Virus record (IMG/VR): IMGVR_UViG_3300045125_000158
Location: 118,618-182,617 of that record
DNA from: a virus
DNA length: 64,000 nt
Direction: 5' to 3' (one strand)
Shown: positions 3,901-38,828 of the stretch, in pieces
Layout: each line of letters starts with the position of its first letter
How positions within the stretch are numbered: position 1 is the first letter of the stretch
Position numbers and translations under genes: made by a program
The notes under the pieces: model-generated
Database searches by the model: none
What the model was told of the DNA's origin: nothing
Seen by the model: the letters and a program-made list of their open reading frames with translations, nothing else

Positions 3901-6900
3901 TTACTTGAACCTAACATTGTTATTCTTCAACTCAAAATTTGGATCGTCCTGAGCGAGTTCGTTGCTCTTATTCAACGTGAATAAGCTTTGTATTGAATCT
4001 TTCAATTCTTGTGCAACTTTTCTCTGATTACTACGCTCAGATATAACTAAAGGCTTTTCTGTGCCCTTCGCAACAGTATCGAATCCTTTCTTGGAAGCAC
4101 CAAAGAGTGTTGTCTCCAAATCTTTCAAATCACTAGCCTCATAGCGTGATAACTTTTCGATTTCTGATGCAAGCTTATCTAAAGTTATCAATCCCGCCTT
4201 GAGCTTACGACCTGCAAGCTTTGTAGCAGCCTCTTTTTTGCCGCCAAGGATTCAGCATCGCCACTAGCAATGACTGTTCCTTTAATGTCTGTTTGCTTTT
4301 CTGGAGCATTCTTCTCATTCTTGTCAAACTTAGAATTCATTCCGCCGCCAACTGGAATGCTTGGAGCATCCTTGCCAGCCTTGGGTACATCCTTGATTGT
4401 ATCCTCTCGTGCCCCATCAATTTGCTATCCTCTGTCTTGCCTATATCGCAGGATTCAGAAGGCTTTATTGGGTTTCCGCTATCAGGAAGATCTTTGTCTG
4501 CTGAATGCTTACCAATATCACCATGCTCGGAAACTGGCTTGGCATCGTTAATCTTCTTGTCTGATGCTGTCTTGATATTCTTCATAATCTGTTCGGCAAG
4601 AACGGTCGTGCGGGCTTTGCTGGAAGCAGCATGATTTCCTGCACCTCTGTTTCCTCCTGTCATCTCGTGAGTTTTCTCACTTGTATAACCAAGCTCTTTT
4701 TCATGACCCATTTCGCCACCGCCAGCATCAAAAGCAGGTTTATTAGTTACAACCTCAAGACCCGCATCTGCTTTCGCCACCCATCAGCGCCTTTTTACCT
4801 GCCTCAGGCACTTTGGGCTTATTCATTTCGAACTTTCTTCATGACCCATAGTCTTGTGATCCTGCACCTTACCAGCAGCTGTCTTGCACGTTCTTGAGAG
4901 TTACTTCTTTGCTTGCTTGATTTGTTTGCCCTGATTAGCAAGAACTTGAAGTACATTACTGAGATCCAAATTTATTTCTCCGGTACTAGAAATCTTGCCT
5001 TTTCTGAAAACTTGTGCCACAGAAGCCTCCTTTTTAGCTTGCTCTGTATCCTCTCCCTCATCTTCATCTCCCGTTTTCTTGAGGAAATCGGGTTTTGAAT
5101 CATGAGCGTGATCATGATCTGCTGGCTCGTCTTTCTTATCATCATGCTCATGTTCATCATGCTCATGTTCCTCGCTCTCATGCTCTTCGTGCTCTTCTTC
5201 CTTGTCATGATCTTTATTGGTGTGACCTTTTGGCTTGTCACCATCATCATCGCCATCGTCCTCACCACACTCCTCGCATTCCTCATCCTCTGCATCTTCA
5301 CTACTCATAGCAATTTCTTTCTCAGTTGTTGCAGAAGGAGGCATCCCAACATCAGTTGCTGCAGTTTCGGCTTCTGCAGATTCAAGTGCTGCTTCGCCCG
5401 ATGGCAAATTGCCTACAGCCTCTTCAATTCCTTCAGTTGCTTCTGCTGGCGTTTCAATTGCCTCGCCAACTGGCATTTCTTCACTCATAGGCTCGTGATG
5501 AGCTTCCTCTGATGGCTTCTCGCCCATAGCCTTACCCCCATAGCCTTATCCAATGCTGCATCGAGATTCTCAAGAACATTTTGTGGCAACTCAATTGTTA
5601 CCATATCGCCCTCTGGTAAACCCTCAGGCTTGGCAAATGGATCTACTTCTTTCATATCCATTACGTCGGCTTCATCAGAAGCCTCTGGCATGGGAACCTC
5701 ACCAACTGGGGCTTCTGGCTCTTCTTTGATTGGAGACATTTCCTCAATTGCATCAGCAGCGCGATCCTGAACTTCAGCGTATTTATTCTTCAACTGATCA
5801 CAAACTATGCACGCTTCTTTCATGCTGAACTGTGCAGTCTTAACAAAATCTTCTACACAGTTAACCATCTGATCTTCAACAGACCAAATCGAAGCTATCT
5901 TGATTGCAAGATCGTTGGCGTAAACTCCAGCTGTCGCAAGCTTCTTGCAAGCACATTCAGCAAGTGGCTTGCCCTCGCAAGGACCACTCATCGCAAGTGC
6001 ATTCTCTCCAAATTTACGTGCAATCTTTTCGATGCATGTTTCGATTGGGAACTTGCTACCAAAACCAGCAGTCTTCTGCAATCCGGCTATAACATTATCT
6101 CTAGATGCGGTCTTAACCGTCTTGAACAAGCCTTTCTCGTTCATGGCAAGAATTGTTTGCCCTTCTCAGTTAAAAGCATGCCATCAAAATCTTGTTCCGC
6201 AATTCCATGAGCTGAAAGTGCAGCGTTAAAAGATGCTTTTCTGCGATTGCATGTATCACACTCTCTTGTAAGAGGTATGGCATCATAACGCCATTCAGCA
6301 AATACAGCCTTCTTGCCACCCTTATCAACGCCAGCTACATGCACCTCAAACTTTCTACCAGTATCTAGGCACATGAACGCATTACCCGCAAGCTTCATAG
6401 TGCTGTTATTGCCTGTGTAAGGGCTAACTGCGCCAAGGCTCCAAGTTTTACCCTCAGCCTTAGCAGCCTCTTGCGCAACCTTAATCATAGTGCTGTTGAG
6501 ACGCGTCATAGCTGCAACAGGCATACTCTCTGGCTCCTTAGACTCTGGCATTGCAAAGCCTTCGCCCTTATCTCCCTCTTCTTCTTCTTCTCACCGGAAT
6601 CTAGAACGCTTGGATACTTAGTTATTGAAATATTTACCTTAACATCAAACTCAGCCTTGCAATTATTGCAGCGGCACTTACCTTCAAGCACATCAACGTC
6701 GCTAGATCCGCATACTACGCAAACAGTTCCGGGTGGCTTGGGCTGCATATCGGTATCAGTTGCCTCATCTGCACCCTCCATTCCACCCATACCAGCTGCA
6801 CCACCAGCGGCTGGAGCAGTAGACAAGGCCTCGGCCCCACCCATACCACCCGCACCCGCGTTCATATCAGCGCCGCCCATCATGCCACCAGCTGCACCAC

Positions 6901-27311: not shown

Positions 27312-30300
27312 TTTAAACTCCTCTACGGGGATAAGATGCCGTTTTTCTAAATCGTGAGCAACTTTTCCACCAGACCCAATTCCATAAGGCACGCCCTGCA
27401 TAGATCTCCACACAATATCGTTATTACCATTTACTGGTAAATTAATCAATTTTCCTTGCGGCAATCTGTCAACTTCTTTTTTCAATACAATTATAACAAG
27501 CACCTGCTAAAGCGTCTACGATATCATCAGTTGTAACGTCTCCATCTCTTTTGGGGTATACTTTATATCCACTATTCAACCACTTTCGTTGTAAATTTTT
27601 CATTTCATTCTTTAGCAATAGATGATTAGGAATAAACAACTTCCTCTGAACAACTAATTGATATAAATTGTCATAAATAATGTTCTTATATCTTTTAGTA
27701 AACGGCGTCATCTTGGTAGGAACGCCTTTTTTACGTAATTTTTCAATGCTATAATGGCTATTAAAATGGTCATATGTCACAACTCCAAGACAAAAATCGA
27801 ACGTTTAAACTTGCAACATATTCATCCACCTCGTCTATAAGTATTGGCCTATTAGGAGCAGGACTCCAGTATTTAATATGATCTACTATTATTCGCCAAT
27901 CCTTTTTCATGTTCTCTTTATCAAAATATACCTCTTTGTGGGCCATTACAAGAGCGTAATTGTGACTAGATGTCGCAGGATCTAAATGTGCAAAATAATA
28001 AACACCAGCTTTTCCATGATCAATTAATTTAAGCAACTTGTCGTTGAAACAGTCCTCAACTGCTTCTTCTGGAAAAAGTTTTCACCAGAAGTACCTGAGG
28101 AATTCTGCACCAAATTCCATTCTGAATTTTTCTTCAGGCATACTTGGAAATGCAGCCATAAGGCCTTCTTTGCTCTGCATAGGGTTTACCTGCCATGTTG
28201 CAGCCTGACAAACTAATCTATGATCAACCTCTGCATGATTGACATACAAATCGTAAAAAATACCTTCTTTGCCTCTTGGCGTACTCAAACATATGATTTT
28301 ACCATCATATATCTTATCTACAATCTGTTTATTATCCTTATCAAGTACTGGTTCGCCTTTATCATCAACTTTAGGCACTTCACGTACATATGTTTTTACT
28401 GCAGGGGCAAGAGAGTTAAATATCGCATCACCAGAAGATGCACCAGCCGTGTTTTTATAAAGTCCAATTTCGTCAAGCAACAAAACATAACATGATATAC
28501 CTACTAGCGTGTCTGAGTTACTGTGACCGCTTTTGACAACTATACTCCCAAGATTTGGCGCGAAAACCTTTTGATACGAGTTCTTCGTTTCTCTTTCTAT
28601 CTTCTGGTGTTAAGAAATGTATACCATCCGAAGTTACACCCTCAGGCAATATTTTATCTCTAAAATATTCGCTTTGTAAAACTTTATCTTTGATTTCGCG
28701 AAGAGAATTTTTGCTTGCAGAAGAATTTGCAATTGTTAAAATTGTGAATGGTGTAGCTGAACCCAAATTATAAATTTTATACGGATCTCCGCCAGGCAAT
28801 TCTAACAACCTCATCGCTTCATACAACGCAATAATTGAACACAAAAATCTTTGCCTGAATTTTTTACGATGGAATCCCTGACAAACAAAATTTTGCAAAT
28901 GCTCTTGATCACTAACTTGTAAGTCAAATACTCTTTTTCATCAATTGATAGATTTTATTTTAGAAAATGAAACTTTCGCATGTCTCTTTGACACTTTGCA
29001 TTTTTTATAAGATTGTCTATTAGATTATTTATATTACTGTTTCTTCCTATAAATCTAATTTCATCAAGAAAAGTTTTTATATGTCGATATTTTTTAAACT
29101 CTAGACAATATGATAAACAATCATAATTGTAAAGTTTTCCTTCTGTCTTTATTTTAGTTTTTTGCTTTCTTGTTCTAATCGTTGCTATTATTCCGAATTT
29201 TTGCAACAGTGCTTGCACGGCCTGCACTTGCGATTTATTTATCGATGCAAAACCCACAGTCATATTTGCTTGGTTATTTTTTCTAAAATGATAAACCCAT
29301 CCGTCACAGCTAAACAGGGATTTCAGATAAGCGGCCACAACATTCTTGGGGCAATTAAATAATGCACTTGGCACGCACTTGTTGTGACTCGTTTTACCCA
29401 TAAGATCGTGCTTTATTAGAAGTTTTACAAGATCGTTTTTATCTCTTGTTGATATGTTTCTCTGCTTTTTTCTCATCAAAATAATTTAGAGTAACAAATT
29501 TTTTGGATCGTATTTTATAAGCATATTTTTTACTGTCAGCCTTAGTCCATGTATCCTTGATTAATTCGAGATTATCACTCAGATTATTCAAATGCTTTTA
29601 CAAAATCTGCACGTATATCTTCGTTTTTTGCAGTAAAAAAAACTGCTGCTTGAGAACAACAGCCATCACCTGTTATATATCCTAATATAGCAGCTTCATC
29701 CTCACTAATTGCATTTGAATTGCCAAAAAATGGAATTGATTCGGTTATTGCTATTCTATCACCAGTATTTAAATCTTTACACTCGATCCATCCCCTGTCA
29801 GTAAGCATCGGATGATTGTCTGTAACTTCTATTTCATGCCCTGTAGAAGATGTAATCTTGTAAACACTTCTTCGACCCTGCGGTATGACGCCGCAATTGT
29901 CCATCACAACCATTTTGTTTTGCGATTCATCGTATGTCCAAGAAGATACTATTTTCTGTTCTTCCCACGCCTGTTTAGAAGTAAATTTCTCACCTGTTCT
30001 AGCATCAATCAAAACGCCATCTTCAGAAATACAATTGTGGCATATAAAACCATTTGCCACAAAATTTTGCAAGCTTTCATGTTCACTAACTTGAAGATCA
30101 AAAGTTCTTTTTGTACCTATTTTTTTGATTATTTTTACTGTCGCAAAAATTGGAGCTATCTAAATCATGCTCACCCTTAACATTCTGTTGAACAAGTTCG
30201 CTCTCATATGAATAATTAAGCAAACCAATTTCTTGTATAAATGTTTTAACATGCACATTTTTATCAATTGTAATAATAAAACTAGAACGATATTTATCGA

Positions 30301-31481
30301 GCTTATTTTTAATCGTAGCAAATATGCCAAACCTTGACAGCAGATGCTGAATATGCTTAGCTAACAAAGAACTGTAAACTTTTAGTTCTAGCTTTGCTGT
30401 AAACTTTTTCCTTGCTTACAAATAAACACTGCATCACTACTATATATTGCTCTCAAATATGTACTAATAATATTCTTAGATGAATTGAAAATACGCACAG
30501 GAACAAACTTTTTGACTTGGACTTTTGTTTTTTAATCCATTTTGAGCCAGTAAGTTTATAATATTTGTATCGTTGTCTAAATAATTTTTCATCGTATATA
30601 AATACGAGTACTTTCTTTCATCAAAAGATCGTATATTATGTTTATCTGCAAAATCTACAAGCATTTCTGTTTTTAGCGATTTCAAATTTGCTTTGAAATC
30701 ATCATAAACAGCACCATCATACAGCGTTGTAGCTATATGTATACCCGTTGAATCAAAACTGTTACTGCATATATATCCTAATATAGCGGCTTGTGATTCT
30801 TGCAAATCAAAATTGTTACCAAAGAAAGGCTGTGATGCTGCAATAGCAATCTTATCTTTTATTTTTAAGTCTTTTGAGTTTCTTCCATCCCTTATTTGTA
30901 AGCATTGGATGGTTTTCAGTTGCTTCTATCTCGTGACCAGAGTCAGTTTGTATCTTATAAACTTCACGCATACCTTGATATATCAAGTTTGAATTTGGCA
31001 TGAGAGTCATGACTTTGTTTTTTCATCAAATGTCCACGCATCTAATGTTGTTTTCCAAAATTCCATAAATCGCCCAATCTCCAGATTCTGCCTGTTTTGG
31101 GTTCAACAATTTCACAATCTTCACTAAGGCATCTACGACCCCATACTAAAACTAACTCTCTAAAATCATGCTTTGAATTCCATTTATCAATCAAGTTGCC
31201 TTTTTCAATAGAATTTAGAGAGTTTTTATTGATGAGATCAATATCTTCCTTACTAAGCGCAAGGTCTTCGTTACCTTGACTGCCTCTGTAGAAGCATTTT
31301 AAGAACTAATTTTTGTAGATCAAATAGCTTATATGGAAGTCCCAAATACTTTTTGTTATCCACAAACTCTAGGATACTAGGTATTTTTGTCAAAGACTTG
31401 CGAATCGTGCTGTATCTTTTCGCGAAGACCTTTGAACAATAGATTATCATTAGTTTTTTTATTTTGTTTATCCTTAGCCAT
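27279..31481 (-). CDS. terL: Terminase large subunit with two tandem inteins (frameshifted)
   Basis: Spliced Walker A ELVLVWGRR|SGKDF; Walker B CYVLLLDEIG; coupling motif CLSTPRG; nuclease domain YFAHLDPATSS, TYDHFNS, DDIVDALAG. Confidence 0.9.
28859..30033 (-). mobile_element. TerL intein B (about 390 aa, LAGLIDADG motifs intact)
   Basis: CISEDGVLIDART...EVTDNHPML...AAILGYITGDG...AYLKSLFSCDG...FDLQVSDQEHLQNFVCQGF(I)VKN|SGK; the last codons need a 1-nt correction. Confidence 0.85.
30034..31131 (-). mobile_element. TerL intein A (about 366 aa, LAGLIDADG motifs degenerate)
   Basis: WGRR|CLSEDCEIVEPKTG...EATENHPML...AAILGYICSNS...YLRAIYSSDA...FDLQVSEHESLQNFVANGFICHN|C. Confidence 0.85.
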
Positions 31482-34870: not shown

Positions 34871-37800
34871 TTAACCACACTTTGATCCGCCGCAATCCTT
34901 GCAAGTCAAACATCCTTCCATTCTTACGACATTCGCTCCGCCGCATGAAGAGCATTGAGAACCGGTAACCTTAGTTCCATCAGCTATATACTTTTTCAAA
35001 ACTCTAGCCATAGCTTTACCAAAATTAGTCATGTCTCCCGGCGACTTCTCTAGCTGATCAACGATAAATGATATGTCGGAACCATGCCTCAAAGCCAAAC
35101 TAATCATGCGTGTGATAACTGCCTGTTCGTCAGTAAGTAAATCGCAAACATTTTCAACCTTTGACCCGTCCTCTGCATGCAACTCGTAATGTCCTCGTTT
35201 ATTTTTGGTAAGAGTTCCTTTCTTTAGTGTTGTGATGCATCCGTTCTTACCCGCAAATACTTCGTACGGATGACCCTCAAGCATGCTAACAAGAACAAAG
35301 AAATCTTCACCACGAGATTTGATATGATGTATATCACAATCAAGAGTCTTGGGTCGCTTTGGAGCATTCGTCTTAGTAAGCGATTCCTTCTTCTTTTCAG
35401 TGTTTGATACAAGAACGCCAGTGCGACATCCGTCACGATATACAGTAAATCCTTTGCAGCCAGCCTGCCATGCTTTCATGTAAACTTCTGCAACAACTTC
35501 TTGCGTTGCTTCGTTAGGCAAGTTACATGTTTTGCTAATAGCGTGATCAACCCATTTTTGAGCAACGCCCTGCAAATCTACGCTAGCAGCCCAATCTACG
35601 TCGTTGCTTGTTGCCTTGTAATAAGGTGACTCCTTGTAAAATTCAAGATCTTCGGCAGTTGCTATGTTCTTAATTTGATTCGTCTGGAATTTCATATCCA
35701 TTAGCGTCCATCCACGCCTTGAATTGATGATGGAATACTGGGAATTCTTGCCACTTATCTCCGTTCTGATCAACAAAATCAACTCGCACATTCTGGCCAT
35801 CACCGGGATTTATTTTCTTACGACGCTTGTAGAAGACTAAATATGCTGGCTCGATACCAGAGGTGGTTTGGCGTAACTGTTGATACAGAACCCGTAAGGC
35901 GCAGTTGTTAGGTTAGCGATATTTCTGCGACCGTACTTGCTATACAATTCATATACATCTGGTGCGGCATCCCAAATTCTTTGCAAATAAGGATGATTCT
36001 TTTCAAGCTTGTGATCAAAAATAGGGAATGCACCACGATCTTTGCCATCTTGCAACTAGAGCGATAAGAACCAACAGCAAGACTCTTATAAATCATTTCT
36101 GTAATCTCAATGCTCTCTTTGCTACCATATCGGACATTCAAAGCAGCAATAGCGTCACCTAGAGCAGTAATTCCAAGTCCCGTTCTACGCCCCTCAATAC
36201 ATGCCTTGCGTATGTTAAGCCACAACTCTTTTTCAACCAGTTTTACTTCATCAGATTCTGGATCGCTCTCTATTTTAGCTAATATTTTAGCAATCTGCTC
36301 TAATTCAAGGTCGATCATGTCGTCCATGAGTCTCTGTGCAATTTCCGCCATTTGCTCAAGTTTTTTGATAATTAAACTTGGCATTTTTGTAAATTTATCT
36401 GTCTACAAAACTCAACAAATTAACGCACATAAGCCGGCACGAATCTCTAGGACTTAAGATGATTTCGCCACAATTTTTGCTGCAAATCATATGCCATTCT
36501 TTTGCCATCTTTTTCATTTGACCAACCACCCATGTAGTAGTTATTAAATTCATCAACTGTACCATTATAGACAATATCTTTGCCTAGGTATTCAACAGAT
36601 TGGACACGATGATTGTGCTGCAAAGCTGCTGCTTTGAGTTCGGAAAAACTATAAAATCCGTTTTTAGTTCGCAATCTAAAAGATATCTTTTGAGTTCTAC
36701 ACTCGTTTTCCCACTCCTTAAGCAAAGGCTCTCGACACAAAGCCTGCTTGAGTTTTGTATAGATATCTAACTTGTCTTTTTTGTTTTTGTTAGCGTAATT
36801 ATGATACGTTGCATTTATTGATTCTTTTCTGCGAATATTTACATTAGTAGTATTGTTAAGATAAATATTGCTGCAGCTCAGGCTACATACAGATTGCTCT
36901 CTATTGTAGTAATTTACAGCGTATGAATTTTTGCAGCATTTACAATTCTTGATTACATAAACTTCAGATCCTTCGATGTAAGCTTCATAACCTTGCTCGA
37001 TAGCCTTTCGATGAGTTTTAACTAAACGCGGATCAATATCGATATCAGCAAAATTGAGAGCAAGAGCACATTCCTTTGCTAAATCCAAAATATTACCCAA
37101 TTCAGAAGATCGATATGCGGTAAATGTTTGTGGCAAGTTGTTTTTCTTTGCGTACTCAATCCACTCAAGATGTGAAAATCTTGCTCCAACTTGCTTAGTA
37201 AGAATCATTGCGTGTTCTCTAATTTCATCATTGGTATAATTTTTGCGTTTCCATTTTTATCATTACTACAAGCCTCAGACATTACTTGTGAGTAAGCGGC
37301 AAATCTTTCTTTATCAGATTTGATCTTGTAGATGGGGGTTCGCTAATCCACGAATCATGTTGCCGTGATACTGTGCATGAGCATCCTTGTGCATGCTTTC
37401 TAAATTGCTCGGGTTATTATTCTTAGGATTATGATCCTTATGATGCACATGATGATGCTTAGCTACTGGCCCATAATGATGTTCGAACACGTAACGATGC
37501 TCTGACTTTTTAAAATTAGAATTACTATTAGCGAGTATATAATATAAAAGCTTATTGTTTGTAGACTTTTGGGTTGAGAATGCATCTACTATTGTTGACT
37601 CAGAATTTTCTTGCAATGTGCAAGCTGTCGCCATGTTTCAAATTTTTTACTTCGACGAAATCACCAGTATTCAATAGCACTTTATGGTTGCCAGTAGTTT
37701 TAAATTCCGAACCATCATCCAAAACAACTTTATAAACATCCTCACTATGTCCAGTTATTCTTGGGTTACGCATTGTCCTTACAGCAATCCTGCCTTGATG

Positions 37801-38828
37801 ATCGCAACAATAAACAGGCACATCTAAGCCTTCTTCCGCAAGCTTTTGTATTTCAACGAAACCACGTCCATCAGCGACAGCAATCTTGGTGTCACCCGTT
37901 ACACAAGGATTAGTTGCTGTCGATGCGAAACCAAAATCCTTATAAATATCAGATGGGGTATACTTCTGAGCGGTATCCCAAAATAAGCAGATCCTGGCTC
38001 GGCTGATTCCCAAGCAGCATGTATAATTTCTTTCCACAACTCTACTGCATCAACTTCTTGCCGCACTTTTGGATTGCTGGAATTTACTGGCCAACGTAAT
38101 TCAACTTTGCTCTTATTCTTGACTGCATTCATAAATTCATCAGACAAGCGTATAGATATATTTGCTCCAGTGACTTTAGTTTTATCTTTCTTAATATTGA
38201 TGAATGTGCGTATCTCAGGATGATGGCAAGATATTGTTAGCATCAATGCCCCACGACGACCATTTTGCGCAACCTCACGGCAAGTATTACTAAATCGCTC
38301 CATAAATACGCCAATACCATCAGTAGTACGAGCTGCGTTCTTAGTAATGATTCCTTTCGGTCGAATGTGGCTGATATCAAATCCAACACCACCACGACGC
38401 TTCATAATTTGAGCTTGCTCTTGGTCTGTTTTTAATATTCCACCATATGAGTCTTCAGGCGATGGTATCACGAAACAATTCGAACAGCTCTGTATTTGAT
38501 AATCATTTCCAATAGCGCTCATAGGTGAGCCTTGAGGAATTATCCACTGGAAATCCTTGAAATAGTTGCATATTTCTTCTTCACTCAATGCATTGCTATA
38601 ATTCTTTTCTATTCTCGCAAATTCTTTTGCTAATCTTCTGTGCATTTCGTTTGGCGTTGGTTCTAAAATATTACCATTTTGGTCTCGCATAGCATACTTG
38701 CTTACGAAGACACTGGCTGCTAAATTGTCTCCGTCAAAATATTCTAAACTCATTTTCATGGCCTCTTCATGAGTGTAGACGCTTTGACCTTTAGCTATAT
38801 CTTGATTAGCATTTGCGAACGTTGTCAT
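34871..38828 (-). CDS. nrdJ: Class II (B12-dependent) ribonucleotide reductase with an intein, C-terminal TSCPD-like domain and zinc ribbon (frameshifted)
   Basis: PQGSPM, SCSNCFV, RRGGVG, QNGRRGALM, SAEPG, TNP|CGE, RRTGLGITALGD, TAP.G, QKWVDHAISKTCNLP, KGFTVYRDG, terminal CSSCG...CLTCKDCGGSKCG. Confidence 0.93.
36473..37905 (-). mobile_element. Intein with HNH endonuclease in NrdJ (about 477 aa)
   Basis: ATNP|CVTGDTKIAVADGRG...FKTTGNHKVL; HNH HRYVFEHHYG...VHHKDHNPKNNNPSNLESM; VYNGTVDEFNNY...ICSKN|CGEIILSP. The +1 residue is the Cys of the NPCGE active-site motif. Confidence 0.88.

Follow-up and report, generated by a model that had tools for sequence, protein, structure and literature searches.

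The large terminase gene (terL) in the window, a 64,000-nucleotide stretch of the IMG/VR virus record IMGVR_UViG_3300045125_000158 (positions 118,618 to 182,617), is interrupted by two inteins that directly abut one another. The source record has 187,259 bases, is AT-rich (36% GC) and is 93% complete according to CheckV. Each of the two inteins, termed A and B in the order of translation, has the anatomy of a complete intein. The same stacked arrangement recurs in intact open reading frames (ORFs) of six relatives, the two inteins belong to two different lineages, and B has a history separate from that of the gene around it. We consider it highly probable that these are two autonomous class-1 LAGLIDADG inteins stacked at VWGRR/SGKD, that B invaded an allele already holding A, and that the terminase is restored by serial splices.

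The terL gene lies on the minus strand (window 31481-27313) and in a frameshift-aware alignment is collinear with the intact 1425-codon frame of a relative, locus L010. The order on the minus strand is ...VWGRR / intein A / intein B / SGKD..., with 0 extein residues between the inteins. The junction between the end of A and the start of B, QNFVANGFICHN / CISEDGVLIDARTG, is free of any correction because it lies within a single raw ORF (29584-30072, minus strand), which carries QNFVANGFICHNCISEDGVLIDARTG in one frame. The initial annotation, made from the window alone, had described two complete inteins without an intervening extein residue and an HN-C junction in frame in this ORF. The window and all six intact relatives bear out this description, and frameshift-aware alignment with three-frame translation found its coordinates for both inteins to be exact. 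The end of intein B, read there as GF(I)VKN, needed amendment: the window copy reads GFH(+1 base)VKN, and the equivalent in relative P0006 is GFHVKN. The features of the locus are as follows.

27313..31481, minus strand: terL precursor (N-extein, intein A, intein B, C-extein), from frameshift-aware alignment to L010, PHROG and tblastn
31132..31481, minus strand: N-extein, ending ...FRELVLVWGRR; empty alleles read VWGRRSGKD uninterrupted
31146-31132, minus strand: first half of the P-loop-like motif, at the end of the N-extein
30034..31131, minus strand: intein A, 366 codons, which groups with single A-type inteins of sister phages
31131-31129, minus strand: Cys1 of intein A
30938-30900, minus strand: block B of intein A, GHEIEATENHPML
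30781-30749, minus strand: degenerate LAGLIDADG motif 1 of intein A, LGYICSNSFDS
30459-30430, minus strand: LAGLIDADG motif 2 of intein A, YLRAIYSSDA
30102-30034, minus strand: block F/G of intein A, ending LQNFVANGFICHN
30028..30039, minus strand: A/B junction, CAC AAT / TGT ATT (His-Asn / Cys-Ile), within the reading frame of raw ORF 29584-30072
28859..30033, minus strand: intein B, ~392 codons; the stacked B inteins form one clade (100/100)
30033-30031, minus strand: Cys1 of intein B, also the +1 residue of intein A
29841-29803, minus strand: block B of intein B, GHEIEVTDNHPML
29685-29653, minus strand: LAGLIDADG motif 1 of intein B, LGYITGDGCCS
29329-29297, minus strand: LAGLIDADG motif 2 of intein B, YLKSLFSCDGW
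28928-28859, minus strand: block F/G of intein B, ...LQNFVCQGFH-VKN, with the penultimate His replaced by Lys
27313..28858, minus strand: C-extein, starting SGKDF and running through the ATPase and nuclease parts of TerL
28858-28856, minus strand: Ser+1 codon, TCA

Both halves of the window insert match the Pfam families Intein_splicing and LAGLIDADG_3. Against Intein_splicing, for which the curated cut-off is 35.8 bits, the broken pieces of the window score 27.5 and 48.3 bits. Taken alone from the intact frame of L010, each intein exceeds the curated cut-offs of both families, A with 58.1 bits for Intein_splicing and 40.2 bits for LAGLIDADG_3, and B with 47.6 and 62.0 bits, respectively. The residues typical of class 1 are invariant in all stacks: Cys1 (CLSED...) and ATENH of block B in intein A, and Cys1 (CISED...) and VTDNH in intein B. 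Intein A ends in HN and is followed by a Cys that is at the same time Cys1 of B; intein B ends in KN, SN or HN, followed by the Ser of SGKD.

A search of viral contigs with a piece of the C-extein identified 24 loci. Most of these encode a terminase of ~1005-1017 residues with one intein at GRR/C...HN/SGK, and four (L016, L018, L019 and L022) have the empty site GRRSGK within VWGRRSGKD. A single locus, L010 (protein P0002), holds two inteins in its uninterrupted frame, with the junction GFICHN/CISEDG. Five further stacked terminases of 1384-1406 residues (P0003, P0004, P0005, P0006 and P0007) were found by a protein search with intein B of L010; with L010 included, the intact stacked ORFs measure 1384-1417 aa. 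Wider scans for B-bearing loci returned L010 only in viral contigs and none in metagenome contigs. The stacked relatives come from separate samples and different pipelines (JGI, ENA and Logan). In all seven stacks, the window included, the sequence is HN/C[IV]S, no residue separates the two inteins, and the residues at the internal junction do not vary. In addition, a 1903-nt Logan contig of a public run extends ~900 nt to either side of the L010 junction with 0 differences; the same run also holds a diverged relative without ~1188 nt, which is the length of B.

These data bear directly on the possibility of an assembly artefact, either a chimera of strains carrying an A allele and a B allele or a mis-joined repeat. 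The window assembly is noisy (~5 indels per kb), and a single-A relative co-occurs with a stacked phage in one sample. However, the same junction stands in intact frames of six other assemblies from different samples, the Logan contig matches it without a difference, and a homology-driven chimera would yield one hybrid intein rather than the end of A joined to the start of B. Because stacked ORFs recur across samples and pipelines and a Logan contig spans the L010 junction, an assembly chimera is excluded as the source of the stack, and an artefact of any kind is scarcely credible. Support for the stack thus rests on the six independent intact relatives and this contig.

The initial annotation had proposed a search of TerL homologues for single-A, single-B and empty alleles, and all three kinds were found. 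At the same site A occurs alone in more than 20 proteins and a B-type intein alone in more than 20 proteins, and four loci are empty. Single and stacked inserts interrupt collinear homologues exactly at GRR/SGKD. Loci L017 and L019 have near-identical exteins (tree path ~0.02), the former with a 402-aa B-type intein and the latter with an empty site. This pair marks a recent gain or loss and shows that the turnover of B-type inteins, by gain or by loss, is quick. Two proteins, P0074 and P0274, carry 150-residue mini-inteins (CISEDMTI...CQGFICHN) at GRR/SGK from which the endonuclease domain has been lost, a later stage of the homing cycle. Some more distant terminases (P0016, P0020, P0034 and P0047) have, besides the P-loop intein, a second intein at a far C-terminal site in the nuclease part, reading ...TDD/C...HN/CDALAGA.

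Identification of the host gene as a large terminase, which the initial annotation had also made, rests on two comparisons. An empty-allele homologue matches the terminase families phrog_2 (E 4.3e-28) and phrog_9 (E 1.1e-20) of PHROG, and in tblastn the C-extein hits annotated terminases from phages of Streptomyces and Mycobacterium, with ~24% identity and E down to 2e-23. Pfam gave no terminase family match for TerL, and the gene had no blastn match among 50,697 phage records; no close cultured relative is apparent. The GRR/SGKD sequence fits the pattern G-x-x-x-G-K at the start of the PHROG ATPase match, with Asp, not Ser/Thr, after the Lys. The insertion lies in this P-loop-like motif, which is likely to be the Walker A motif named in the initial annotation. 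The 93%-complete record has one terL locus, so the stacked gene must yield a working terminase.

The two inteins appear to differ in the state of their endonucleases. The LAGLIDADG motifs of B, LGYITGDG and LFSCDG, are kept in six of the seven stacks (motif 2 of P0007 reads CNG), and nearly all B-type inteins retain GDG/ADG and CDG. In most A-type inteins, whether single or stacked, motif 1 is LGYxSS[N/S/G/A], without the canonical acid of GDG/ADG; an Asp or Glu aligns there in P0004, P0042 and L005. The alignment thus upholds the earlier description of a decayed first motif in A and an intact one in B. Motif 2, also called decayed in that description, keeps its Asp in most A-type inteins, and the LAGLIDADG domain of A is still recognisable. 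Since single A-type inteins show the same loss, decay of motif 1 in A is not special to the stack. Among the stacks, mean identity is 44% for the endonuclease part of A and 61-64% for its splicing parts, compared with 60% for the endonuclease part of B and 77% for the C-extein. A thus resembles a fixed element whose endonuclease is decaying, and constraint seems still to act on the endonuclease of B.

Phylogenetic analyses place A and B in separate lineages. A and B share about 34% identity (31-36%), which agrees with the earlier view that they are alignable and clearly diverged. A shares 50-65% identity with the single inteins of sister phages, and B 40-47% with single inteins of 387-405 residues at GRR/SGK in more distant terminases. 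In the intein tree two old lineages, the A-type and B-type clades, are split with support of 97. Stacked B inteins fall together in one clade (100/100), to which the single intein P0012 is sister (95/95). Stacked and single A inteins are intermixed. This tree decides between two origins that the initial annotation had left side by side, in that it supports invasion of an occupied site and rejects tandem duplication in place. That one intein was duplicated in situ and the copies then diverged might be supposed from their adjacency, homology and similar length. B is nearer to single B-type inteins than to its neighbour A, however, and single inteins lie on both sides of the A-type/B-type split, one of them as sister to the stacked B clade. 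A duplication is therefore very improbable.

The distribution of the stacks adds to this picture. The surrounding extein clade has 30 members, every one of them with A, and the seven stacks are scattered among single-A alleles in the extein tree; P0003 is sister to the single-A protein P0252 (97/92) and P0006 to the single-A protein P0251. Well-supported extein branches force at least 4 changes of stack state, and a single clade of stacks is rejected by the approximately unbiased (AU) test (p 7e-36). The B tree also conflicts with the extein tree (AU p 0.0004). Intein B of P0003 is mosaic: one stretch resembles P0005 and the following one L010/P0004. In the window allele, a P0003-like N-extein and intein A are combined with a P0006-like intein B, which shares 84% identity with its counterpart in P0006. 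These sequence comparisons favour a horizontal spread of B among alleles occupied by A.

The following course of events would account for these observations. Intein A would be the old resident, present in every member of the clade, tracking the host gene and having a fast-evolving endonuclease part. Intein B would derive from the other lineage, which occupies GRR/SGK alone in more distant terminases. It would have entered an A-holding allele between the last codon of A and the Ser codon of the C-extein, and since then would have moved or recombined among A-bearing alleles. Active terminase would be restored by two ordinary splices in series. If A were spliced first, it would use Cys1 of B as its +1 nucleophile, where single A inteins use Ser, and would leave GRR/B/SGK; this product would be a normal B precursor in the context of the single relatives, with Arg at -1 and Ser at +1. 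If B were spliced first, the N-extein together with A would act as its N-extein, with Asn at -1, and the product, GRR/A/SGK, would be the precursor seen in sister phages. Either order is chemically plausible, and we infer that synthesis from the N to the C terminus would favour A first. That both inteins splice is suggested by the six intact ORFs, the single terL and the conserved catalytic residues. The endonuclease of B is probably active and may now target A-occupied alleles.

Several observations weigh against parts of this interpretation, beginning with the state of the window copy itself, which in alignment to L010 has 19 frameshifts and 1 in-frame stop over 4.1 kb. With short ORFs throughout the 187-kb record, these breaks could suggest a dead gene in a decaying phage remnant, in which the stack would be a relic freed from the need to splice. 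However, breaks are as dense in either intein as in the N-extein and the C-extein (4-6 per kb), and the neighbouring genes on either side of terL have a similar density (2.9 and 6.1 per kb). Nearly all breaks are single-base indels beside A/T runs, and only one is a stop. Between breaks the exteins are ~87% identical to those of P0003 (626 columns), and terL of the stacked relatives is intact in any case. Breaks distributed so evenly, inside terL and in its neighbours, look like noise of the assembly; their profile is that of unpolished long reads and not of a decaying gene. A dead gene is thus quite unlikely. Single-base indels are present at ~3-6 per kb in every gene checked (window, genome G000), so that raw ORF calls are unreliable; the largest raw ORF in the 64 kb is 840 aa. 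An altered genetic code or programmed frameshifting was considered for the broken genes, and was dropped in view of these indels in every gene checked.

Two further adverse observations concern the splicing of B. Its penultimate His is replaced (Lys/Ser) in six of the seven stacks, compared with one of ~23 single B-type inteins, and in an AlphaFold model the predicted local distance difference test (pLDDT) score falls below 50 at the first six residues of B. The model otherwise consists of two modules with the same order of elements; its best PDB matches in Foldseek are 7qsu, 7qss, 7qst, 1dq3 and 1ef0 (E to 7.5e-20), with TliVMA, PI-PfuI and PI-SceI among these proteins. The low score may mean that both active sites cannot form around the shared bond, or may reflect a shallow alignment for B. 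The B half of the model rests on 6 rows, and MAFFT set single B-type inteins on A columns despite the extein anchors; the low confidence at the junction is therefore not strong evidence for strain.

Both observations could also be taken to favour one composite splice that begins at Cys1 of A and ends with the terminal Asn of B, in which the internal junction would never be used. The homology of A and B and the likeness of their splicing blocks would permit such a reaction, which the initial annotation had offered beside sequential splicing. However, the terminal His-Asn of A, Cys1 of B and the Thr and His of block B in B are invariant in all seven stacks, in which only 23% of the columns of A and 34% of those of B are invariant (rough chance ~0.002). 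Moreover, both inteins match Pfam in full, each forms a module of its own in the model, and A alone and B-type inteins alone serve as single inteins in relatives. A composite splice needs neither the internal His-Asn/Cys nor block B of B, and so two sequential, independent splices appear likeliest; a cross-domain splice is distinctly improbable. Sequential splicing would carry a risk of its own, in that an acyl shift at B coinciding with Asn cyclisation at A on the shared Asn-Cys bond would cut the chain without ligation. One may speculate that replacement of the penultimate His in B serves as a splice-timing device.

The remaining points, for and against, concern the spread of B. The DNA of three stacked alleles was compared: the frameshifted window, L010 and L025 (protein P0007). 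In all three the Ser+1 codon is TCN (L010 nt 5623-5625), whereas 14 of the 15 distinct alleles with one intein or none, the closest sisters of L010 among them, have AGY; the lone exception is L012. Because these two serine codon families are two substitutions apart, the TCN codon looks like a short co-converted flank that travelled with B. The contrast (~p 0.005) ignores phylogeny and rests on three stacks. Sliding DNA comparison around B was saturated (55-80% identity), and no co-conversion tract was traceable beyond the Ser codon. In addition, the appearance of horizontal gain could arise if B were lost precisely and repeatedly and stacked alleles recombined. The His codon before the Asn of A is CAC in two of the three stacks, as against CAT in single A alleles of the clade.

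A more far-reaching proposal is that B is a parasite of occupied sites, with an endonuclease that reads the last codons of A together with the C-extein, and that one Cys and a shared bond impose an order on splicing. We offer this tentatively, as somewhat less probable than its contrary. If it were true, occupancy by A would no longer confer immunity, and B would home among A-bearing terminase alleles. The single Cys would be both the +1 nucleophile of A and the initiating nucleophile of B, so the splice order would have to be enforced.

Stacked inteins also occur outside terL. We searched 1.84 billion representative proteins by HMMER with a query of 80 residues on each side of the L010 junction, and found a second zero-spacer stack in an unrelated gene. 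This protein, P0180 (2299 residues), is encoded on a Logan contig of 84 kb and reads, over residues 393-1247, GIKNQN / a 431-residue intein (...IIHN) / a 424-residue intein (CLAYD...VQHQ, with a Gln end) / SIMVDN. The 431-residue intein includes zinc ribbons and an HNH domain, and each intein passes the Pfam threshold alone (59.4 and 44.7 bits). Six intein-less homologues (among P0213-P0222) read GIKNQNSIMVDN uninterrupted. P0180 looks like a tape-measure protein and, as an independent case, suggests that stacking may be a general result of competition between inteins in phages, and one that has been overlooked.

Closely packed inteins with short spacers were also observed. Four proteins (P0088, P0098, P0102 and P0175) have a P-loop-like 3-residue spacer, HN/TGK/C, and two DnaE-like proteins (P0079 and P0100) a 6-residue spacer, HN/SYGFNK/C. 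In P0173 a 10-residue spacer with GKYHPHGD is found (N/CLGKYHPHGD/C), and P0166 and P0093 have two inteins with spacers of 16 and 12 residues, respectively. Within the window itself, a ribonucleotide-reductase-like gene (...RRGALMLT..., ~36000-38700, minus strand), also frameshifted, carries a further intein. It starts ...FASTATNP/CVTGDTKIAV at ~37890 and has an HNH-like stretch, HHHVHHKDHNPKNNNP; Pfam Intein_splicing matches at 37612-37779 with 26 bits.

Inteins are the textbook example of single-site parasites, and an occupied site has been assumed to be immune for as long as the resident stays. Two different inteins stacked without an extein between them contradict this assumption and add a step to the homing cycle, the super-invasion of a decayed resident. 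It also poses a chemical puzzle, since one Asn-Cys bond is scissile for both inteins and one Cys is needed twice, and mistiming would cut the precursor where ligation is required. Intact natural stacked sequences make these mechanistic and evolutionary questions directly testable. Natural zero-linker pairs might find use in protein engineering, for sequential or ordered protein ligation, and public metagenomic proteins, in which spacers of 0, 3, 6 or 10 residues occur, can be mined systematically.

Genes with several inteins have been described before. The authors of the initial annotation knew of no description of directly abutting inteins, and our full-text literature search, with subscription journals outside its scope, likewise returned no description of two inteins at one site without an extein between them. 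The closest likeness at the RNA level is to twintrons, introns within or beside introns, in which two stacked self-splicing elements are removed in series. Twintrons usually lie one inside the other, whereas the elements here are proteins and stand side by side. Like the class-1 LAGLIDADG inteins PI-SceI (Sce VMA1), PI-PfuI, TliVMA and PhoVMA, both A and B have Cys1, TxxH, a block F/G Asn followed by Cys or Ser, and a two-motif LAGLIDADG domain as an insert. Unlike these, the two share one insertion point, so that the C-terminal scissile bond of A is the N-terminal scissile bond of B and Cys1 of B is the +1 nucleophile of A. They also differ in that A is without the canonical acid of motif 1 and B mostly without the penultimate His.

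The mycobacteriophage terminase P-loop inteins TerL1-a and TerL1-b occupy sites one residue apart, with one intein per gene (Kelley et al. 2016, PMC5050341). Class-1 phage inteins at the terminase P-loop often replace the penultimate His with Lys, Ser or Gly, and such replacements modulate splicing (PMC5050341). The terL stack resembles TerL1-a and TerL1-b in its phage terminase host, its insertion within the ATP-binding loop and the replaced penultimate His of B. It differs in that two inteins fill one site, and in that GRR/SGK lies three residues upstream of the classic GK/T position. In haloarchaea, the neighbouring inteins MCM-a and MCM-d interact, and double alleles probably arise mainly from invasion of singly occupied ones (PMC10643990). 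There, as here, one essential gene holds two LAGLIDADG inteins, and double, single and empty alleles coexist in relatives. The MCM sites are distinct, however, each with its own extein-derived target; since no extein lies between A and B, the target of the newcomer would have to include the end of the resident intein or only half of the empty site. Finally, the homing cycle (Goddard and Burt 1999), as summarized in 10.1101/2025.01.02.630785, accommodates a fixed A with a degenerating endonuclease and the presence of empty, occupied and mini-intein alleles among relatives. In that summary the cycle expects a decayed element to be lost before the site is invaded again, whereas here re-invasion appears to have taken place on top of the resident.

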